Shown here: piece after piece, positions 7,358-42,289 of the stretch
How positions within the stretch are numbered: position 1 is the stretch's first letter
Layout: each line of letters opens with the position of its first letter
NCBI GenBank assembly: GCA_965279265.1
Contig: OZ257152.1
Location: 3,401,592-3,465,591, forward strand
DNA length: 64,000 bases
Direction: 5' to 3'
DNA from: Dyadobacter sp.
GTDB lineage: Bacteria; Bacteroidota; Bacteroidia; Cytophagales; Spirosomataceae
Notes under the pieces: model-generated
What the model was told of the DNA's origin: nothing
The model's database searches: none
The model's input: only the letters and a program-made list of their open reading frames with translations
Translations under genes and position numbers: made by a program

Positions 7358-7380
7358 GTACAATAGCAATTTACATCAAA

Positions 7381-8688
7381 TTAAAGTCTCACGATCTCTG
7401 CGCCGATCGCGTTTAATCTTTTGTCTATATTCTGATATCCGCGATCAATTTGTTCAATATTGTCAATAATACTTACACCCTTTGCAGAAAGCGCAGCGAT
7501 AAGCAAAGCCACTCCTGCACGAATGTCAGGTGATGTCATCCGGATTCCGCGTAGCTGCGTTTCTCTGTTGTGACCGATTACTGTTGCTCTGTGCGGATCA
7601 CAAAGTATGATCTGAGCACCCATTTCAATCAATTTGTCAACGAAAAACAAGCGGCTTTCAAACATTTTCTGATGCACAAGTACAGTTCCCTGCGCCTGAG
7701 TAGCTGTCACCAGAATAATACTCAGCAAATCAGGTGTGAAGCCAGGCCAAGGTGCGTCGGAAACCGATAACGTTGAGCCATCCAGATAATTTTCAATACG
7801 GTAATGGTCCTGTGCAGGGATGAAAATATCATCTCCGCGGAATTCCATTTGAATACCCAATCTTTGAAAAACATCAGGAATGATGCCTAATTCAGCGATC
7901 TGGCAGTTTTTGATCGTAATCTCCGACTTTGTCATCGCCGCCAGTCCGATAAAACTTCCGATTTCAATCATGTCCGGCAGCATGGTATGCTCTGTTCCAT
8001 GCAATTCGGTTACCCCTTCGACGGTCAGCAAATTGGAAGCAATCCCGGAAATTTTGGCCCCCATTCTGTTCAGCATTTTACAAAGCTGTTGCAAATACGG
8101 TTCGCAGGCGGCGTTGTAAATTGTAGTAGTGCCTTCCGCCATTACAGCGGCCATCAGCACATTGGCAGTACCTGTAACGGATGCTTCATCCAGGAGCATG
8201 AAAGCGCCTTTCAGATTCGCGGCATCTACTTTATAAAATCCGCCATCTTCTTCATCGTAACTGAAAGTAGCACCTAGCTTCTCAAAGCCTAAAAAGTGTG
8301 TATCCAGCCTTCTGCGGCCTATTTTGTCGCCTCCCGGCCGGGGAATCCGTCCTTTTCTAAAACGTGCAAGCATGGGGCCAAGAAGCATTACCGAGCCACG
8401 TAGCGCAGCAGCTTTTTGCTTGAACGATTCGGATTCCAGATAATCGAGATTGATGTCGCTGGCTTCAAAACGAACGGACGATTCGCTCAGACGTGTCGTG
8501 TGTACGCCCAGATCTCCCAGCAGATCAATCAATTGGTTTACGTCACGAATGTTTGGAATATTATGAATTGTAACCGGTTCCTTCGTAAGCAATACTGCGC
8601 AAATAATTTGTAATGCCTCGTTTTTTGCGCCCTGAGGTATAATTTCTCCTTTCAGACGCCTGTCTCCCGTTATTTTAAATGAAGCCAT
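7381..8688 (-). CDS. murA: UDP-N-acetylglucosamine 1-carboxyvinyltransferase
   Basis: 'FKITGDRRLKGEIIPQGAKNEALQI', 'PGGDKIGRRRLDTH' and full-length EPSP-synthase-fold similarity support the call. Confidence 0.95.
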   Translation of the reverse strand: MASFKITGDRRLKGEIIPQGAKNEALQIICAVLLTKEPVTIHNIPNIRDVNQLIDLLGDLGVHTTRLSESSVRFEASDINLDYLESESFKQKAAALRGSVMLLGPMLARFRKGRIPRPGGDKIGRRRLDTHFLGFEKLGATFSYDEEDGGFYKVDAANLKGAFMLLDEASVTGTANVLMAAVMAEGTTTIYNAACEPYLQQLCKMLNRMGAKISGIASNLLTVEGVTELHGTEHTMLPDMIEIGSFIGLAAMTKSEITIKNCQIAELGIIPDVFQRLGIQMEFRGDDIFIPAQDHYRIENYLDGSTLSVSDAPWPGFTPDLLSIILVTATQAQGTVLVHQKMFESRLFFVDKLIEMGAQIILCDPHRATVIGHNRETQLRGIRMTSPDIRAGVALLIAALSAKGVSIIDNIEQIDRGYQNIDKRLNAIGAEIVRL

Positions 8689-8822
8689 ATTCAGTAGTTG
8701 GGCAGCAAAACGCTGCGAGGTTAGTAAGCAATTTCAGGACTGCGCCATGAACGGACCTGCAAGCCGAAATCACAGAGGCTCGTCCGCCATGTTCGGATAT
8801 AATTTCTCAGAAGCCGGGAAAA

Positions 8823-9660: not shown

Positions 9661-12600
9661 CTAGGGCATCCAGACTAACTTGCCTTCTTTAATGATCCTG
9701 TCGATTGAATCTTCATTTGCTGTCAGTGACATACGATAAATGTACACGCCGGGAGGAAGATTTACGGGTTGCCAGAACGCTTCATTTTTGCCGGGAAGAA
9801 TCGTTTCTTCGATTTTTTTTACAAATCTTCCCGCCAGATCACTAACCACGATCTGCCATACGCCAGCGTTTTGACTGCCTTTTTCGAGATAAAACCGGAA
9901 CCAGAAACGGGAAGGATTTGGTGCAGCTCCGGTATCCACAACATCATCTCCATCCTGCACACGGAAGCGTATTTTGTAGGGTGTCGCTGCATTGTTACTC
10001 AGGTCGTTCGCTTTAACCGTAAGCATATATTGTCCGTTTTTTAAAGCAATTTCTGGTTGCAGATTTAATTGAAAATTGTTGGCCGGTAGACTTTTGGTTT
10101 TCGCGGACCGGAGGCTCATTCTTTGCTCGGGACAGGTTGCACAATTTTCCCTGATCCTAATCTCAATTCCAATGGTGTCAGAGCGAACAATCCATTTATT
10201 TTCATCCTTGATCTGAATGCCGATGGAGGGTTTTTTACTCACTAAATCGTTGTCCGTCAAATATCTGTTATCGATGGTAATAGTCAGAATAGGCGGTAGG
10301 ATATCCGGGAGGACGGTATAGGCAGAGGTTGCGTTATTATTGATGTGGAGTTCCTCAGGTAGCTCGCCGTGATTGAAATAAAGGGAAACCTGTTGGTCGC
10401 CAACCTGGCCTAAGCTGCCAATCTGATGTACAATCGTTCGAGTTTCGTAAGCTTTTAAAGGCGCTATTCTGATGATTTCCTCTTTCGTTTTGAACATGTA
10501 GGAATGTATTATCCGAATCAATATCGAATCTCTGAATCCTGTGCCGGTAATATTTTGCAGGTTGAATTTTGCATTGAAAACTTCCCCTTCCTCTATTTCT
10601 GCGAGATTTGACGCGTCCGCTAAAACAACGACCTCCGGTAGCACAACATCGCCATCTGTTTCCGGATCGTAATTGACGTTCCGTGTTTTCGACGGCCGTA
10701 GGCTGTCTGCTTCAAGAAATACACGCCAGTAAAGTTTTGTCGAAACGTTTTTTTGTATTGTAATTTTCTGACCGGCAATCCGGTTCCGGGCCTGCTTTGA
10801 GGCTTTAAATGAAGTAGTGAAATTTGGATTTGTATCCCATTCGAAAATGATGGCCGCGTTTTCACTACCCAAGGGCGTCTGTGCAACAAACTCTATTTCA
10901 TTGATGTTGGTTATGTCCCCGTTTTTTGGCAGCAGTGGAACTGCGCCATGCTCCGGAACAAGCACATTTGTTGTGACAACATTGTTGGATTCATCTTCCT
11001 CCGAAATTAGATTTTCGGGATCCAGCTCAAAACGCCATTCTTCCCGGCCAGAAGCACGGGAACTGTTTTGAAACCGGAACTCAAATGTTTCGGAATTGGC
11101 AATAACTGGGAATTGATATCTGAATATTTCGGTTGAATTATCTTCTTTTTTTCGTGTAAAAAGTAAGGTGCAATTCGGGGGTGTTACGCGTCCGTTATTT
11201 TGTATATTAATTTGGACTTCTATACTGTCGCTGAGAGATGTTTTTGTGGCCCCATTTATAATGGAAAAATTAAATCCCGAAAGGTCTGTTGTGTAATCCG
11301 GCAGAGATGCGGGGAAGATGCGGACGGCAGGGTCACCGTGGAGGTTCATCTGTTGCAGATTTGCCAGATCCGAAATTCCATGGCTTTTCGATAAATTCCT
11401 GCGGATCGCTTCCCTTTGAATTGTCCCGAAAGGCTCGCTTGTGAATGCGCTATCTGCAAAAACTTCATAGATTGATTCGGTATAGCGTTGCAATGAGGTG
11501 GAAACACCGTTAGATGTGTGGGCAAGAAACAATATTGCGCCACTTTTAGGCGCAAAAATCCAGTCGCTGCTGATTGTGTTTGGGGTAAAAAAAATACTGC
11601 CTGTTGCGCAACCGTTTACGATCACAGCCGGATACATCGGACCATTGTGGTAATTCCTTTCCGGATCACTTGCATAGCCAATGTCCAAATCTGTCACATT
11701 GATTTCAGAATGACCGAATAACGTCATCAGTGAAACACCTTGATTGACGGCAATGTCCAAAGGAAATTGTTCAACCGGATCGGTTGTTCTTTTTGAAATG
11801 GTTGTTACCGAAGCGCCCAGCGAGGAATTTTTTAGTTTTTTTTCAAATCCATTGATGTATTCCCGAAACAGCAGCAGCTCTTCTTCGGATCGTCCGCCGC
11901 TTAGATGGAGCACATTTTTACGCCAGCGTGCCGCCTTCGGCTCAGCTTCAAAATCCTTTACTTTTTGTAAATATATTCGTACCTGCTCCGCATTTTCCGC
12001 ATTAATTCTTCCAACTGCGACAGAAGGAATATAGGAATCTGCTGTTTCACCAGGCTCCGTGGCGAGGGAGAGGTCGGAACCCGGCCAGCCTGCATTTGGG
12101 ATCATGTCTGCGGTACGCGGCGATTTTTGTTTTCTGGCAGTCTGCGGATCTATCGATTTGCCAACCAGGAAAACAAAACGAAGTTTCCCATTCATATTAA
12201 GCCATTTTATTGCATTTCTGATTCCGGCAGGACCGGGATCGCCATAATTGAAACGGTCAAAAATTTCTTGTATGTTCATAATCAACGGATTGTAACTACC
12301 TCCTTCCGAAGAGGACCGATACGCTGCGTAAGCTGCAACAGGATCCGCTGTGGTGGATTCCCGGACAATCGGGTGGCTGATGAAAAGATAATCCGTAGTT
12401 AACTCAATGCCTGGGAACTTAACGATCCGCAGGCTTTCCGCCTTCAAATGGTCTTTTACAGCTATGACTCTTGAAGTTTTATAAATGTTAAGTCCTGAAT
12501 CTCCGATGGGCATTTCTTTCAGGTCATAAGGATCAGTACAATCAAAAAAGCGAAGGTTGGCCTGGCCGGAAAACTTCCATATTTTGTCTTGCATCGACGA

Positions 12601-35420: not shown

Positions 35421-35735
35421 ATGAATAGAAAAGTCATGAATAGATCCAGAATAATTTTGACAATTGCCGGGATGCTGATTATTGCTTTAAGCTTTTCATC
35501 CTGCGTGTATCACTCCCGTGGTCCTGGCTATGATTATGGTTACAGGAACGGGTACGGCAATGGAGGTTATGGTTATCGCCACAGGCCACCGAGACCGGTA
35601 GTCGTGGTGCCTGCTCCGCCGCCGCGTGTGGTTTATAGGGACAGAGGCCGGCACAGTCACGGACGAAGTAACAGAAATTACAATCGACAGAATTATAGGC
35701 AGTATGGACACAACGGCAGGCCCGGTCCAAGATAA
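35421..35735 (+). CDS. Small putative lipoprotein with a G/Y/R/P-rich low-complexity mature region
   Basis: A hydrophobic signal is followed by the lipobox-like 'LSFSSC'. The mature part reads 'GYDYGYRNGYGNGGYGYRHRPPRPVVVVPAPPPR...'. Confidence 0.55.
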   Translation: MNRKVMNRSRIILTIAGMLIIALSFSSCVYHSRGPGYDYGYRNGYGNGGYGYRHRPPRPVVVVPAPPPRVVYRDRGRHSHGRSNRNYNRQNYRQYGHNGRPGPR

Positions 35736-35753
35736 TTTATTGGTTTAAGTAAA

Positions 35754-35793
35754 AGCCGGGAATTTGAGTCAAACTCATTTCCTGGCTTTTTTT
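35754..35793 (+). terminator. Rho-independent terminator after the small lipoprotein gene
   Basis: A long imperfect hairpin, AGCCGGGAATTTGAGT / ACTCATTTCCTGGCT, is followed by a T7 run. Confidence 0.7.
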
Positions 35794-35921
35794 AATATAG
35801 ATGGTCGGGAAATAGTCTTAATTGTTGTGTTACAAGATGGGTTGTTTAGCTCAGAAAAACTCATTTCCTTCTATCTGGGTTATTTTCAAAGGAATAAGTT
35901 TATACTCTTCGGCTAATGAAT

Positions 35922-35929
35922 TAAGTTTG
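35922..35929 (+). promoter_or_regulatory. -7 promoter box (TAnnTTTG) upstream of the GNAT-like gene
   Basis: TAAGTTTG ends 29 nt before the ATG at 35958, downstream of the preceding terminator. Confidence 0.4.
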
Positions 35930-35957: not shown

Positions 35958-36890
35958 ATGACTAATTACGCCGATTACGCTTTTGAAATTATCCGTATTA
36001 CGAAGTCCGAAGATCTGGACGAATATCCCGAATTAATAGATTCCTTTTTTGCTCTTTATGAAGATCCTTCAAACTTCCCTGACCCGGACGAAAGAGAGGA
36101 TCCCGCTTTTATCAAAGAGCGCATTTCAGAAGGTACTGATAATCCACACACGCACTTGCTGGCCTATCAACTTGTGAGTCCCATCGGGGAAAAAAAGTTT
36201 GCGGCAGGCTGTATTGTCGAATTTTATCCGGACTGTGCCTGTGGTCTGGTTACCTATCTTTTTGTAGACCAAAGGTTTCGTGGGGTGAAAATTGGGGCCG
36301 GGCAGCAGAAAATTGCTGAGTCATTGATCAAGAGCGATCAAGGATTGAAAGGATTGGTGGTATTTTTTGAAAAGGAGTATAAAAAACCAGTAAACGCGGT
36401 ACTTTTTGAATCAAATAACCCCTTTGACACGTTGCCAGAGCAGGACTCTATGCCACCTGCCAAAAGGCTCAAATTTTTTAGCAGAATGGGAGCGAAACGA
36501 ATTGATTTCAACTACATTCAGCCACCTTTGGGAGATGACAAGGGAATTGTCACAAATCTTTACCTGCTGTCATTTCCGGAGCTTACCGGACTAAAAGATG
36601 AAATCCCTGTGAACACTGTGATCCGGTTTGTCATGGAGCTGGCTAAAAGTCTTGATGCTAACAAGGAGCCCGGCTCGGCAACGCGTTATGGTTATGAAAA
36701 CTACCTGAAAGACCTCGCCTTTATCAACCAATACGAAAGTGCTTCGGGAGCTGAATTTCCGGCTAATAAATTGATTGGGTTGAATGCGGATGGTAGAAAT
36801 ATAATCCAAGAAATGTTTCAAAATTTGATTGGTCAAAGTATTGATTCACAATCCGTAGCACTAACAACAATACCTGGAATAGAAATCTAA
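35958..36890 (+). CDS. GNAT-like N-acetyltransferase family protein (310 aa), function unknown
   Basis: 'VTYLFVDQRFRGVKIGAGQQKIAESL' matches the GNAT motif A pattern Q/R-x-x-G-x-G/A. No signal peptide is present. Confidence 0.6.
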   Translation: MTNYADYAFEIIRITKSEDLDEYPELIDSFFALYEDPSNFPDPDEREDPAFIKERISEGTDNPHTHLLAYQLVSPIGEKKFAAGCIVEFYPDCACGLVTYLFVDQRFRGVKIGAGQQKIAESLIKSDQGLKGLVVFFEKEYKKPVNAVLFESNNPFDTLPEQDSMPPAKRLKFFSRMGAKRIDFNYIQPPLGDDKGIVTNLYLLSFPELTGLKDEIPVNTVIRFVMELAKSLDANKEPGSATRYGYENYLKDLAFINQYESASGAEFPANKLIGLNADGRNIIQEMFQNLIGQSIDSQSVALTTIPGIEI

Positions 36891-36931
36891 TTAATTCTAG
36901 AATTTTATTGCGGTTACAAAGCTTGCTGATT

Positions 36932-36971
36932 AAATTACGAAGAAGTACTCAACCCTACCTCTTCGTAATTT
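36932..36971 (+). promoter_or_regulatory. Perfect 12-bp stem-loop directly abutting the start codon of the 1147-aa gene
   Basis: AAATTACGAAGA (36932-36943) pairs with TCTTCGTAATTT (36960-36971) around a 16-nt loop. The ATG follows at 36972. Confidence 0.6.
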
Positions 36972-39900
36972 ATGAAATCTTCTATTAAACGGCAGCTCAA
37001 AACTTTTTTTGATCAATTCTCAGTATTTTCTGAAAGGGCTGCGAGGCATTGGCCTATTCCGGAGAAGGCGAACAATCCTTATGAAGATGATGAAATCAAA
37101 TACCAATTTGAATTAATCCTTACAGATTCTCATTGGAGCGATGATAGTAATATTCAAATCATAAAATCATTTTTTGAACTATATAATAAATCGCCGGAAG
37201 CTGTATTTAGCAGAGGCGCCCGAATGATTTCGGAAGATGAGATAAGGGGTCAAATCAGGAATTTAAATACCCTTGCTCAGTGTTTGCATAATCCGACAGA
37301 GAAACCATTTACCTTTTTGATAATTGGTTTTGTCCCGAAAGAAATTGAGGTAAGAGTAGGTTGTGTAGGCCATTACTTACCGGGTTCAAGGTCTGTATTC
37401 ATCGAGTCGGTTTTAATCAATGATGATCTTCTCGGAACTTCCAGACGGCCTTTGTCAGATAACGCAGTTTCTGACGACTTCAAGAAGGCGTTAGAATTTG
37501 AAATTAGTCAGCAAAAGGTCCTGGGATGGCTTTTAACTCATATTCCCAGACATCAGGACGGACAGAAGGGAGCCTTGTATAGCCTGGTCAATTTTTTGGA
37601 AGAAAATGTTGCGTGGATTCCAATTATCTCCTCCGAAAAGAAGTCTCCGAATTTTGCCAATAAGGTTGTACTGGGTGTCTTTCATGAAGCGGTTAATCCC
37701 ATCATGATAAAGAAAGTGAATCACGATGCGGCAAGTGCAACTTTGCCTTCTCCAAAGTTCCGAGAGAGATTGGCGGTCAAAACGCTTTCCGCATTTCACG
37801 GAATAGATGCGCGCTTTCTGAGATTCGCGTACAGGCATCCGTCATTTGATTCAAAATTGAATGATGACCGCAATTACTTTTTACTGACTTTTCCTCAGGC
37901 TTTAAAAGTTCCGGATTGGCTTGCTGTCGAGTCAGGAATAATTATGGCCTTTATTGTAAATCATAGTTATGCTTTGCAAAATTCATATATACATTTTCAA
38001 ACAGATTTGAATCGTTGCTGGAATTTTGTGCCGGCAAAACGAACGCCTTTAAGAGGCTTTAAGGACGGGAGTAACAACGATTCGATAAGCCTGAATTCGA
38101 AATCATTATTTGAAAACAGATTTACAGAGCATTCGACAGTTCTATATTTACATAAGGTTCCAAGCCTCGAAGAGCCACGTTTTCTGTACAAACGCGCTAG
38201 CATCGGTTTTGAAATAATTATAGATGAAGACTACTTCGAGCCAACAGGGATTGATCCATATCATGATATGGCACCTCGGAAACCTGTCAGAACAAGGCTG
38301 GGCCGTATTGTAGACATGGTGAAAAAAGAGCTGCGGTTGACATCATCAGTTAAGCCGGTCGCATTGTATTGCCCGGTAGCCCATTCTGGCGAAAGTGATC
38401 TCTTTGCTTACAAGTATCAGTCAGAGCCTCCCTATTTCACTCGCTATTATGGTTTGCGGTCCAATAAAGTAACTGTGCACTTTCCTTCGCATTTCGAGTT
38501 CACTTCGGAGGGACGGGTAGAAACATTTTACCGGTTACCGCACAATGACGCAATTGAACCGGTTTTGTTCAATATGGAAACGGGACAAGATAACGCCCTG
38601 CCGTCATTCATGTATCAGGTCGAAATGACAGCCTGTGTCAGCTATACTTATTTTTTGAAGAGCGCAATCAGGGTGTGGCATCTTGTTTTAAAACCCAACG
38701 AGGACCAGAATGGCATTACAGAATTGGAAACAATCAAGTTGATGCGTTTTTTTAGCGGATCTCAGGAGCACGAAAGTGAGGAAGACAGGCGTAAGGTAAT
38801 GCGGGAAGTTAAATTTGTGGTTGGGGACAACAAGTTTAATAAAGAAACTCAGATTGAAGACAAAAAGTCTGATTCGGGTGGGCTGTTTTTTTTCGACCGG
38901 GACTGGTGTTTTCCAAAAAGACATTTTATAGAAAATATATCCGAGGAAGCGCTTGAAAAAGGTATTCGCAAGATATTATGGTGGGTAAAAACTATTCCAT
39001 GGTTTCTGAGAGGAATTGAAAGGAGCTGCATAGAAATTGTGGAAATTCTTAGGAGGATTTTTTACAGTTTTTTTAATATCGAAAGGTTGGAAGTAGACAT
39101 GCCCTGGCTTACTAAACCAGATAATTTGGTAGAGCTGCTCACACAACTGACGGGAGTGAAATACTCTCAGAATCAAGATGGGAAAATTGAGCGGCTTATG
39201 GATAAGGCTGACTTAGCGGTCTCACTTCGCAATGTACGTTCCGGGGTAGTGGAGATAGATACCGGTGATATTACCCCGAAACCGACAAATCCCGGGGAAG
39301 TTGATGAGGAAAAATTAGATTTTAATAATTTTCTTCGTTTTGAGAAAAATCCCGATGCGCCAACCCTGACTCTTGATGAAAAAAATACAATACGGGAAAA
39401 GGTGAGGGCGCTGTATAAAAGCCTGCACGATGATGATGTTGAAATGCCGAAAAAGCCTGAGGACTTTTCGGCAGAAGAATACGCAGATTATGTATTCAAA
39501 TCCTATTGCGGGATTTGTTTGGGAATTTTCGATTACGATCGCATGGGTTTTCAGGAAATTGATGACACACTTGTGCCATTGCCGGATAGCAAGACTGAAA
39601 CATCTTTTATGGTGATCCATCGTGGTGTGTTAGCAATGCTTGGTTATGAAGACGATGTGATGGATACTTTCTGGAATACACTCGGTATTAATGCGTATTT
39701 GCTTATTCCAAGTGCAGTGCTTGCAAATAACGATTACATTTCCCGTGATGCAGAAGGACGCCTTAATCAATTGTTGGACGAGCTTCGCAATGGGAAGTCT
39801 AAAAGATCGATTCCTGAGCTAATTGGTCAGCGTAATACAATTGACGATTTGTTGAATGACGACATTTTGGGAAATGTTTTTCAATACAAAACGGAAACAG

Positions 39901-40415
39901 AGCTGTTTACCCAGGGGATGGAGAGAAGAGGTATCTCTGAACGGATAAAGGATTCTGTGCTTAAGTTAGAGCAGCTGGATAAACTTATAAGTGCAAAGCA
40001 GGAGGAGCTTTCAAGCAAGTATCAACGTCGCATTCAAAATCTGGTTACTATTGTGGGTGCATTTAGTTTTTACCAAATAATTCGTGATTTCTTTAAAGAC
40101 GAGCTTTCTAAGAAAGTGCCTGGAAATGAGAACGTGGTGGTATGTCTGGAAGATGTTCCGGTTTGGTTTAAGGTGCCACTTCAGGCCTTGGACAGGATCT
40201 CGCCCATTCGGATTTTCTCATTGAAAGAAAGTTATGATCCGTTAGATCTTGCGCACTTATCCATTCAAATTGTATTTGCTGTTCTGATTATCTATCTGCT
40301 GATTACAAATCTTTTTGATCCAAATCGAAGCCGTAAATATTTTTGGCAGCGAAAGCGCAGCGCCAAAAGAATCCTTCCGCAGATGAGGCCAAAAACCGGA
40401 AAGGCAGCTCAGTAA
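36972..40415 (+). CDS. Large hypothetical protein (1147 aa): degenerate GNAT-like N-terminal domain, unknown central region, C-terminal membrane anchor
   Basis: The ORF runs 3.4 kb without interruption. The N-terminal ~330 aa are paralogous to the upstream 310-aa protein. C-terminal hydrophobic helices are 'LVTIVGAFSFYQII' and 'LSIQIVFAVLIIYLLITNLF', followed by a basic tail. Confidence 0.7.
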   Translation: MKSSIKRQLKTFFDQFSVFSERAARHWPIPEKANNPYEDDEIKYQFELILTDSHWSDDSNIQIIKSFFELYNKSPEAVFSRGARMISEDEIRGQIRNLNTLAQCLHNPTEKPFTFLIIGFVPKEIEVRVGCVGHYLPGSRSVFIESVLINDDLLGTSRRPLSDNAVSDDFKKALEFEISQQKVLGWLLTHIPRHQDGQKGALYSLVNFLEENVAWIPIISSEKKSPNFANKVVLGVFHEAVNPIMIKKVNHDAASATLPSPKFRERLAVKTLSAFHGIDARFLRFAYRHPSFDSKLNDDRNYFLLTFPQALKVPDWLAVESGIIMAFIVNHSYALQNSYIHFQTDLNRCWNFVPAKRTPLRGFKDGSNNDSISLNSKSLFENRFTEHSTVLYLHKVPSLEEPRFLYKRASIGFEIIIDEDYFEPTGIDPYHDMAPRKPVRTRLGRIVDMVKKELRLTSSVKPVALYCPVAHSGESDLFAYKYQSEPPYFTRYYGLRSNKVTVHFPSHFEFTSEGRVETFYRLPHNDAIEPVLFNMETGQDNALPSFMYQVEMTACVSYTYFLKSAIRVWHLVLKPNEDQNGITELETIKLMRFFSGSQEHESEEDRRKVMREVKFVVGDNKFNKETQIEDKKSDSGGLFFFDRDWCFPKRHFIENISEEALEKGIRKILWWVKTIPWFLRGIERSCIEIVEILRRIFYSFFNIERLEVDMPWLTKPDNLVELLTQLTGVKYSQNQDGKIERLMDKADLAVSLRNVRSGVVEIDTGDITPKPTNPGEVDEEKLDFNNFLRFEKNPDAPTLTLDEKNTIREKVRALYKSLHDDDVEMPKKPEDFSAEEYADYVFKSYCGICLGIFDYDRMGFQEIDDTLVPLPDSKTETSFMVIHRGVLAMLGYEDDVMDTFWNTLGINAYLLIPSAVLANNDYISRDAEGRLNQLLDELRNGKSKRSIPELIGQRNTIDDLLNDDILGNVFQYKTETELFTQGMERRGISERIKDSVLKLEQLDKLISAKQEELSSKYQRRIQNLVTIVGAFSFYQIIRDFFKDELSKKVPGNENVVVCLEDVPVWFKVPLQALDRISPIRIFSLKESYDPLDLAHLSIQIVFAVLIIYLLITNLFDPNRSRKYFWQRKRSAKRILPQMRPKTGKAAQ

Positions 40416-40780: not shown

Positions 40781-42289
40781 TTATTTTGTATGCAGATATT
40801 TTACACCGGACTTTTTAAGAATTTGTTGTGCGGCCTGTCTGCCGGTTTCTGCTGCTCCGTTCATGAAGCCCTGGAAATTGTTGCTGCAATGCTCTCCTGC
40901 AAAAAACATGTTGCCGACTGGCTCACTTTCTGCGCCACCCAAACTGGCCACCTGCCCAACTTTATAGCAGGCATAAGCACCGCGGGTCATCGGGTTATTG
41001 TTCCAATTGTAAAGATTTTTACGCCCGTTAGCTGCTTTTTTTATGCCGGGAAATATCTGCTCACATGAGTCCAGATAAGAATCATATTGAGAGATGGTCA
41101 GATTCTTGCCTTTGTCAGCTCCTAAAAAAAGACTGTAAGCTCCAGGGCCTGTGTTTGATTTTTGCATTTGACTGCTATCCCAGCCATTGTGAATTGTGTC
41201 GCTGAGGGCATAGCCGGAATATCCCTGATGGCGCCAAATGCGCTGGTTTACCCCAATGAATAATTTGGACTGCATACCGTACCCAAGTTCATTGATACAC
41301 TTTCGTTTTCGTTCGGGTAAGGGGATGTTGAGCTCAACTTCTCGCAAAACTGAGAACGGAAGCGTGACAATCAGCACGTCCGCATTTACCTCCTCACCAT
41401 TGTCAAAGGCCAGTTTGTATCCAGTGCCGTTGGGGTTGATTCGTTTCAGATGATATCCTGTCCTGACAATGCTCTTAAGCCCTCTTCTCAGCTCTGAAAT
41501 GATGCGTTCGTTGCCACCTAAAACCTTGTAGCGTTCGTCGCTGTCACCATATATTTCAAAGCCTTTTGTAGTATCGGTGTTTAGCGAAACAAGCATATTA
41601 AGGCTCGACTGTTCGTCGGCTGGAATTCCCAGTTCACTTGTGAAGGAAGTACTGATGATGTCAAACAGCCAGCCTGTCATTCCGATTTTACGCAGATATG
41701 CGTCAACGGATAGGCGGTCCAGCTCAATAACCTTCGGATGAGTGGGATCAAGAGATTCCGGCAGAGCATCTATGTCCTTTTTCATAAGAGGTGAAAACAG
41801 CTTAAATTCATGGATGATCTGCTGCTCGCTGATTCTTTTACCTCCAAAGTAATAGTCTGTCCCGATGAGCTTTTTTTCCGAAGCAGCCCGCATGTCAAGC
41901 AGTGGTAATTTAAATTCGCGACAGAAATTAAGGATGTCGGTGTGTGTCGAATCTATAAACTCTCCACCCAATTCAGTGGTGATGTTATCAGCAACAAGAC
42001 CATTTGCCGAAATGATTCTGCCTCCTATTCTGCTTTGTGATTCGAAGATCTGGGCTTGTAATCCTGCCTTTTCAAGATGATAAGCCGCAGTAAGTCCCGA
42101 TAACCCGCCACCAATAATGACGATTTTAGGGAGATTGCGAGACTGATACGCGGACAGCATCTGAAACGCACTTCCTGCTGCGAGTATTCTGGAACTCTCG
42201 CGAATAAACGAGCGTCGCGAAAAAGAAGATAAATTCTCTGAAAGAGATTCTGTCCTGAATTTTTTTATAATATCCGGTATACGAGACAT
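40781..42289 (-). CDS. Flavin-containing amine oxidase family oxidoreductase with a twin-arginine signal
   Basis: 'SRRSFIRESSRILAAGSAF' looks like a Tat signal. 'KIVIIGGGLSGLTAAYHLEKAGLQAQIFESQSRIGGRI' is a dinucleotide-binding motif. The C-terminal 'FFAGEH' is present. Confidence 0.8.
   Translation of the reverse strand: MSRIPDIIKKFRTESLSENLSSFSRRSFIRESSRILAAGSAFQMLSAYQSRNLPKIVIIGGGLSGLTAAYHLEKAGLQAQIFESQSRIGGRIISANGLVADNITTELGGEFIDSTHTDILNFCREFKLPLLDMRAASEKKLIGTDYYFGGKRISEQQIIHEFKLFSPLMKKDIDALPESLDPTHPKVIELDRLSVDAYLRKIGMTGWLFDIISTSFTSELGIPADEQSSLNMLVSLNTDTTKGFEIYGDSDERYKVLGGNERIISELRRGLKSIVRTGYHLKRINPNGTGYKLAFDNGEEVNADVLIVTLPFSVLREVELNIPLPERKRKCINELGYGMQSKLFIGVNQRIWRHQGYSGYALSDTIHNGWDSSQMQKSNTGPGAYSLFLGADKGKNLTISQYDSYLDSCEQIFPGIKKAANGRKNLYNWNNNPMTRGAYACYKVGQVASLGGAESEPVGNMFFAGEHCSNNFQGFMNGAAETGRQAAQQILKKSGVKYLHTK

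Follow-up and report, generated by a model that had tools for sequence, protein, structure and literature searches.

A pair of adjacent genes in a Dyadobacter sp. chromosome (family Spirosomataceae; contig OZ257152.1, positions 3,401,592–3,465,591, a stretch of 64,000 nt referred to here as the window) probably encodes two subunits of one machine, in which a GNAT-type, acyl-CoA-dependent acyltransferase would sit on the cytoplasmic side of a membrane module with a predicted CorA-like fold. We put the probability of this reading at roughly 55%. The two open reading frames (ORFs) encode proteins of 310 and 1147 amino acids, lie on the same strand and are separated by 81 nt (Table 1), as described in an earlier note made from the DNA sequence alone. 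That note had taken the small protein for an active enzyme and the large one for a pseudoenzyme fused to a membrane effector. The pairing holds as a structural description, an intact GNAT-type enzyme beside a membrane protein with a degenerate copy, but the conflict, defense, or toxin-immunity role that the note attached to it was not borne out.

Relatives of the pair show how its parts are combined. A profile search recovered at least 394 representative clusters (50% identity) at E ≤ 1e-3, and all named superfamily members are Bacteroidota. In a census, 156 sequences were scanned with local hidden Markov models (HMMs) for the small family, the N-domain of the large protein, and the middle (M, residues 385–620) and C (residues 715–1035) domains of the large protein. 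GNAT, M, and C were found together in 97 sequences, M and C in 44, and C only, mostly in fragments, in 13; nearly all 156 end in two hydrophobic helices. The commonest form, and the ancestral one, is a single polypeptide with GNAT, M, and C domains and two transmembrane (TM) helices. The Pfam GNAT model (PF00583) was found in 47/52 fused members, and in Saprospiraceae the GNAT and membrane module share one gene.

In some lineages, the family is split into a GNAT gene that overlaps the start of an M-C-TM gene. The upstream genes of the GNAT-less forms of approximately 460 amino acids were checked at loci L012, L013, and L017, the contexts of L014–L016 being too short. In all three there is a gene of 233–248 codons that overlaps by 4 nt, and its product matches the small-protein HMM (E = 7e-43, 4e-21, and 1e-17) and passes the Pfam GNAT threshold (29.0, 21.6, and 21.3 bits). 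In Spirosomataceae, by the same comparisons, the GNAT part is present twice. Every Spirosomataceae genome examined has the small and large genes side by side; in Larkinella knui, Fibrella forsythiae, Spirosoma sp. 48-14, and Larkinella soli, for example, a gene for 306–327 amino acids directly precedes one for 1168–1245 amino acids on the same strand. Co-occurrence across genomes had been proposed as a check on the pairing, and the genes adjoin in all five other paired loci (L001–L004 and L018) and are fused in most relatives. L018 is an intermediate: it has a 308-aa orthologue of the small protein, and the partner downstream, of 747 amino acids, can no longer be recognized over its N-terminal ~200 residues. 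Because the two parts are variously fused, split with translational coupling, and strictly adjacent, these comparisons show that the GNAT works in concert with the membrane module and that the two genes are functionally linked.

The N terminus of the large protein had been aligned by eye with the whole of the small protein. Pairwise BLASTP recovered a C-terminal piece only (small residues 168–232 with large residues 269–335, E = 0.005), a stretch to which the note had drawn attention. This match is too weak to establish paralogy, and a profile-profile comparison was needed. Alignments were built from 34 close relatives of the small protein (A1) and 11 relatives of the large protein (A2), all of them from Spirosomataceae or metagenomes. 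The two profiles aligned in hhalign with a probability of 99.3% and E = 1.2e-20 over 285 columns, small residues 6–309 being collinear with large residues 41–400, while a control of the small family against the rest of the large protein (~800 residues) gave E = 0.33. On this basis, paralogy with the first 400 residues of the large protein extends over the full length of the small one, its non-GNAT tail included, and the match drawn by eye is significant.

Several features identify the tethered copy as a degenerate one. Its cofactor loop is replaced by a variable insert of 30–40 residues, in agreement with the loss of the glycine motif pointed out previously. An AlphaFold2 (AF2) model has a predicted local distance difference test score (pLDDT) of 80–90 across residues 45–150, and the best PDB matches of its N-domain in Foldseek were GNATs (3igr, 9iy3, GCN5, and 3owc; probability ≤0.91, E ≥ 0.05). 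Conservation was assessed at the 32 positions of the GNAT domain whose conservation across the 52 fused homologues is 80% or more. Of these, the small family keeps 25, among them every conserved polar or charged one (D42, E45, E47, R55, Y90, Y100, R108, E151, R170, and Q188). The large N-domain keeps 11, all hydrophobic, Gly, Pro, or Ala except for E151 and Y186, and has lost the equivalents of D42, E45, R46, E47, R55, Y90, Y100, R108, R170, and Q188. Identity was also computed part by part between the same pairs of genomes: it is 60–71% for the small protein, 50–63% for the M domain (mean pairwise 56%), and 54–70% for the C domain, compared with 28–38% for the fused N-domain. By this measure the fused N-domain evolves about twice as fast as the free copy, yet it is never deleted. 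Because it retains 11 rather than 25 of the conserved positions and diverges about twofold faster, we regard the large-protein N-domain as a pseudoenzyme (pseudo-GNAT). Most simply, the GNAT-plus-linker part of a fused ancestor would have been duplicated, and the tethered copy would then have decayed. Ahead of the pseudo-GNAT, residues 1–39 of the large protein form an N-terminal helix with a conserved FSERAxKHWPLP motif that occurs only in Spirosomataceae large proteins; the helix may serve the free subunit as a docking element.

The small protein comprises a GNAT core (approximately residues 10–235) and a tail (236–310) that aligns with the linker of the large protein (346–400). It matched no Pfam or NCBIfam family at E ≤ 1, and its A1 profile matched none of the PDB sequences. 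It is, however, 46–48% identical (E about 1e-60) to the N-terminal domain of fused proteins of 840–857 amino acids from Neolewinella/Lewinella (Saprospiraceae); one Neolewinella N-domain scores above the PF00583 gathering threshold (21.9 bits versus a cut-off of 20.7), and PF00583 is present in the small-protein homologues P0035 and P0036. The family motifs FPDxxERE, E-[ST]-N-N-P, and Y-[IV]-Q-P-x-L are all found in the small protein. Its homologues above the GNAT profile threshold thus place it in the GNAT superfamily. The segment previously likened to GNAT motif A is not canonical: R108-G109 is invariant and G113 nearly so in the small family, but an insertion of approximately seven residues then replaces the canonical R-x-x-G-x-G/A spacing. 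Fused relatives keep the R-x-x-G-x-A/G acetyl-CoA loop, whereas the spacing is broken in the Spirosomataceae small family, and the family-conserved glycine at fused-form position 118 is present in just 3% of small proteins. Binding of an acetyl-CoA-type cofactor by the small protein is thus likely but not assured.

Two relatives of the GNAT domain have unusual contexts. In Spirosoma sp. 48-14 (L003), a third paralogue of 474 amino acids (7370–8794, + strand) lies directly upstream of the small gene, and its GNAT domain belongs to the present family (E = 1e-23 with the family HMM; PF00583 22.6 bits). A eukaryote-like metagenomic protein from the Joint Genome Institute (JGI) collection (P0037, 527 aa) combines an adenylate kinase domain (PF00406, E = 5e-43) with a GNAT of this same family, which has the YIQPPL motif.

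The large protein gave no useful match in Pfam, NCBIfam, or PADLOC, and in particular no characterized housekeeping family, a match that would have spoken against the original reading. No curated model covers the M or C regions, and neither A2 nor a further family alignment (A3), which includes 41 GNAT-less sequences, matched PDB sequences as a profile. A first full-length AF2 model made from 12 sequences was mediocre (pLDDT 63) and matched GNATs weakly plus one CmaX, a CorA-family channel. It was replaced by a model of residues 385–1147 from a more diverse alignment, with pLDDT 73, a predicted TM-score (pTM) of 0.73, and pLDDT 90–98 in the C domain and stalk. With this second model, the top 17 PDB matches in Foldseek were all members of the CorA superfamily (CorA/ZntB/CmaX). 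The best was CmaX 7nh9 (E = 3.3e-4, probability 1.00), others included Thermotoga maritima CorA, the ZntB soluble domain, and Campylobacter jejuni and Escherichia coli CorA, and matches after the top 17 had E values of 0.4 or worse. A viral fold library yielded nothing (best probability 0.25). A loose resemblance to CorA had been remarked on before, and the model gives it substance. Secondary-structure elements follow the same order as in CorA: an alpha/beta domain, two long helices, a stalk of ~60 residues running into TM1, TM2, and a basic tail, with model helices at residues 988–1048 and 1090–1114.

The C domain is the most widely conserved part of the superfamily. A survey of 77 members agrees with the earlier description, in which the protein lacks GMN and ends in one or two hydrophobic helices and a basic tail: 73 have two hydrophobic C-terminal segments and four have three, the median net charge past the last TM is +4, and a long, variable loop (median 24 residues) joins TM1 to TM2. 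The predicted topology, N-in/C-in with a basic tail, is that of CorA. Pfam CorA (PF01544) was found in 1/52 fused relatives (E = 6e-5) and in 0/41 of the GNAT-less sequences in A3, and it did not match the large protein of the window. Because GMN is absent, Pfam CorA is nearly blind to the family, and TM-scores are low, we describe the C-terminal ~430 residues as CorA-like in predicted fold and topology, not as a member of the CorA family.

Two observations concern individual large proteins. The insert at residues 621–714 (A2 columns of about 860–960) contains two extra hydrophobic helices in P0041, P0043, P0044, P0046, and P0052, which may be an additional membrane hairpin; the version in the window is short. 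P0046, an orthologue of 1141 amino acids from JGI data, has the source name "6-pyruvoyl-tetrahydropterin synthase," for which sequence analysis gave no support.

In the proposed two-subunit machine, the free 310-aa copy would be the catalytic subunit, and the fused pseudo-GNAT would have been retained as a scaffold for docking or regulation, keeping the enzyme at the mouth of the membrane module. GNATs commonly dimerize, and there are well-known tandem GNATs in which one of the lobes is dead. The CorA-like part would probably form an oligomeric pore with its activity coupled to acetylation, either because a cationic amine-type substrate is acetylated on entering or leaving via the pore or because the ligand state of the GNAT gates it. 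Of the two couplings we favor acetylation of a small cationic amine in transit, speculatively and at low odds. It is likewise only a tentative proposal, with the odds against it, that the whole family is an enzyme-coupled pore, i.e., a GNAT-capped CorA-fold channel that carries out vectorial "group acetylation" of a cationic substrate or acts as an acetyl-CoA-gated ion channel. If this were true, the pseudoenzyme of the Spirosomataceae version would have evolved into a docking site dedicated to a catalytic subunit that can detach; group acetylation would be analogous in logic to group translocation by the phosphotransferase system (PTS), and a gated channel would tie membrane flux to the central metabolic state.

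A number of results weigh against the two-subunit machine. The small protein itself matches no Pfam GNAT model, and the acetyl-CoA loop of its family is non-canonical, with an insertion and without the glycine of R-x-x-G-x-A, so the free copy could be catalytically altered too. Docking of the small protein on the pseudo-GNAT is suggested by analogy and co-inheritance only. The M domain has no Pfam, PDB, or fold match. The CorA assignment comes from a predicted structure, with TM-scores of 0.25–0.31 and high root-mean-square deviations; the G-[MVI]-N pore signature was found in 0/77 members, and Pfam CorA matches only 1/93 of those scanned.

The predicted fold could instead mean that the large protein is a true CorA/ZntB-type divalent-cation (Mg2+/Co2+/Zn2+) channel, with GNATs that are merely regulatory (acetyl-CoA sensing or auto-acetylation) and no separate small-molecule substrate. 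CorA, ZntB, and CmaX are the best and only consistent fold matches, topology and basic tail agree, and conserved acidic residues in the cytoplasmic domain (D854, E862, D865, E975, and others) could form CorA-like cation-sensing sites. We consider such a channel unlikely, given the missing pore signature, the failure of Pfam CorA on the window protein and 92/93 scanned relatives, the long variable TM1-TM2 loop, and the additional conserved M domain. No more probable is a specific version of the two-subunit machine in which the GNAT acetylates a polyamine-like cation in the pore and an exported flavin amine oxidase processes the product or substrate. CorA pores pass or bind small polycations, and a GNAT with a flavin amine oxidase has the logic of polyamine back-conversion by SSAT and PAOX. 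A PF01593 oxidase with a twin-arginine signal adjoins the pair in the window and in L001–L004 despite inversions and varying orientation, and so, except in L002, does an ABM-like gene. At L001 and L002 the oxidase gene runs in the same direction as the large gene and overlaps its end; in L001 the order ABM, small, large, oxidase is read from a single strand. These adjacencies weakly suggest a link to amine metabolism. However, the small protein has no sequence similarity to SpeG or SSAT beyond the GNAT fold, and no oxidase lies beside the fused homologues in Neolewinella, Dyadobacter, or L009; the oxidase linkage could therefore be inherited synteny within one family.

Less probable than either is the conflict system suggested in the earlier note, an anti-phage or toxin-immunity pair with the GNAT as toxin or sensor and the large protein as membrane-disrupting effector or immunity pseudoenzyme. 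GNAT toxins such as TacT and AtaT exist in toxin-antitoxin (TA) systems, the pairing of enzyme and pseudoenzyme resembles toxin-immunity logic, and the pair has the lowest G+C of 32 long ORFs. CorA-fold membrane effectors occur in type III CRISPR defense (PMC10600005). PADLOC, however, returned no match for either protein, and no small DNA-binding antitoxin ORF is adjacent to the pair. Its neighbors in the window are ordinary (a sensor kinase, a Dabb protein, a 104-aa low-complexity protein, the ABM-like protein, the flavin amine oxidase, and a transporter), no integrases, transposases, tRNA borders, or repeats were found near it, and there are no mobile-element or defense genes here or beside relatives. 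The commonest form of the family is, moreover, a lone single gene: the fused homologues of Dyadobacter soli and of an 8.6-Mb genome stand alone among regulators, efflux genes, and metabolic genes. A variable-island setting had also been named as a point to check, and the flanks are syntenic in four other Spirosomataceae genomes (Larkinella, Fibrella, and Spirosoma). The locus is chromosomal and syntenic, not an island, and the pair is not an autonomous unit in the sense of a mobile one. Because the oxidase and ABM genes stay beside the pair in other Spirosomataceae loci, these conserved neighbors argue for vertical inheritance and against a mobile island.

Composition agrees with this. Windowed G+C across the region is 0.40–0.43 (window mean 0.435), and the small and large genes have values of 0.425 and 0.412 versus 0.449 ± 0.017 for the 32 long ORFs, with G+C at third codon positions of 0.41 versus 0.458 ± 0.034. 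The dip that the earlier note reported is genuine, but its spot counts of 28%–43% exaggerated it; the genes lie only 3–4 points below the others. A horizontally acquired island was rejected on this small difference together with the syntenic flanks. That the two genes are unrelated neighbors whose similarity and adjacency are coincidental is extremely improbable. Neither protein matches a curated family by itself, but such a coincidence is already refuted by the hhalign result (E = 1e-20), fusion in 97 representatives, overlapping split genes, and adjacency in 5/5 other paired loci.

Each part of the pair has parallels in known systems. The last ~430 residues of the large protein are predicted to fold like CorA, ZntB, and CmaX of the MIT superfamily (PDB: 7nh9, 8tmc, 4i0u, 3nvo, and 5n77): an alpha/beta domain in the cytoplasm is followed by a helical bundle and a very long stalk that leads into TM1, and beyond a second TM the chain ends in a basic tail on the cytoplasmic side. 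The present family differs from these channels in that it has no G-M-N, is nearly invisible to Pfam CorA, and has a long variable periplasmic loop, an additional conserved M domain rich in beta structure, and, at the N terminus, a GNAT or pseudo-GNAT. Enzymes with two GNAT lobes in tandem, one of them inactive, include mycothiol synthase MshD and a tandem GNAT of the clavulanic acid pathway (PDB: 2wpw). There too the fold is duplicated, and one copy keeps cofactor and catalytic residues while the other is structural or substrate binding; here, in contrast, each copy has a polypeptide of its own, the inactive one being fused to a membrane protein, and heterodimerization is a supposition. MprF/lysyl-phosphatidylglycerol synthase (PDB: 4v36 and 5vrv), which was among the GNAT-fold matches of the first model, likewise has a GNAT-fold transferase covalently joined to an integral membrane transport domain and couples modification to translocation, but its membrane domain is unrelated (a flippase with many TM helices), and domain order, substrate, and sequence family differ. 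Type II TA toxins such as TacT and AtaT are GNATs of ~170–180 amino acids paired with a small DNA-binding antitoxin. They resemble the present pair as GNAT enzymes in two-gene cassettes. The enzyme of the present pair, however, is accompanied by its own homologue, a membrane protein of 1147 amino acids, and most relatives consist of one fused gene.

As a CorA scaffold put to a new use, the type III CRISPR-associated CorA effector activated by S-adenosylmethionine-AMP (SAM-AMP) (PMC10600005, PMC12255297) is the nearest functional precedent. In both cases a divergent CorA-fold membrane protein would have its cytoplasmic part coupled to an enzyme or ligand system rather than serve simple Mg2+ uptake, but the pair has no cas genes, NrN, or SAM-AMP lyase and no defense context, and its partner is a GNAT, fused or adjacent. 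It would be the second case, after the CRISPR-associated effectors, of a CorA scaffold repurposed and wired to an enzyme. GNATs and the CorA fold are both textbook material; their combination is absent from Pfam, NCBIfam, PADLOC, and the searchable literature, where full-text searches found no description of a GNAT/CorA-like combination or of a relevant GNAT pseudoenzyme pair. Family members are named only "GNAT family N-acetyltransferase" or "hypothetical protein" at source, and such automatic names overlook the membrane module altogether in what is a sizeable unannotated Bacteroidota family. The natural series from fused to split to duplicated with a pseudoenzyme also offers a way to study how a catalytic domain decays into a scaffold.

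Table 1. Features of the gene pair and its surroundings (positions in the window; residue numbers are those of the large protein)
Feature	Position	Strand	Remarks
104-aa ORF	35421–35735	+	N-terminal hydrophobic segment; Gly/Tyr/Arg/Pro-rich low-complexity tail; no Pfam match
Terminator-like hairpin and T-run	35745–35795	+	closes upstream gene; left boundary of unit
Candidate promoter -7 element TAAGTTTG	35922–35929	+	29 nt before small-gene ATG; read from sequence
Small gene, 310 aa	35958–36890	+	ORF; stand-alone GNAT-type subunit
Spacer hairpin	36931–36972	+	3' arm extends to A of large-gene ATG
Large gene, 1147 aa	36972–40415	+	ORF
N-terminal helix, residues 1–39	36972–37088	+	candidate docking element
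Degenerate GNAT-fold domain (pseudo-GNAT), residues 40–345	37089–38006	+	hhalign to small family; Foldseek
Beta-rich middle (M) domain, residues 385–620	38124–38831	+	conserved; in 141/156 superfamily representatives
Lineage-specific variable insert, residues 621–714	38832–39113	+	mean identity 19%; short or absent in distant relatives
Cytoplasmic C domain, residues 715–1035	39114–40076	+	predicted CorA-like alpha/beta domain, helical bundle, and stalk
TM1 IQNLVTIVGAFSFYQII, residues 1021–1037	40032–40082	+	continuous with stalk helix; no GMN
TM2 LSIQIVFAVLIIYLLIT, residues 1096–1112	40257–40307	+	model and hydrophobicity
Basic C-terminal tail, residues 1113–1147	40308–40412	+	predicted cytoplasmic
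ABM-like gene, 110 aa	40425–40757	-	conserved neighbor; functional link unproven
Flavin amine oxidase, twin-arginine signal (SRRSFI)	40781–42289	-	PF01593 E = 1e-47; conserved neighbor; functional link unproven

The boundaries of the unit agree with those drawn earlier, namely a terminator and a -7 box on one side and a convergent gene on the other. RNA folding gave the upstream hairpin -22.8 kcal/mol and z = -6.8, and none of 200 shuffles was as stable; a sigma-70 promoter and terminator scanner, which is uninformative for a Bacteroidota genome, overlooked it. The -7 consensus of Bacteroidota promoters (Bacteroidetes sigma-A) is TAnnTTTG, and TAAGTTTG fits it, making this element a candidate promoter for the small gene. 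On the other side, the convergent 110-aa gene ends 9 nt past the large-gene stop. The 104-aa ORF lies just before the upstream hairpin.

Folding of the 85-nt stretch between the genes (36891–36975), which contains the spacer hairpin, gave -18.4 kcal/mol (z = -3.2). Comparable hairpins of approximately -18 kcal/mol are found in the spacers of L001 (about 9950–10003) and L003 (about 9933–9982); all three have the 5' arm GATTAA(A/G)ATTA in common and pair up to or over the start codon of the large gene. Such a hairpin could act as a translational throttle on the large subunit relative to the small one. The spacer of the metagenomic relative L018 (1043–1191) holds a very strong terminator-like hairpin with a T-run (-37.7 kcal/mol for a 152-nt stretch), which suggests that at that locus the small and large genes are transcribed separately or under attenuation.

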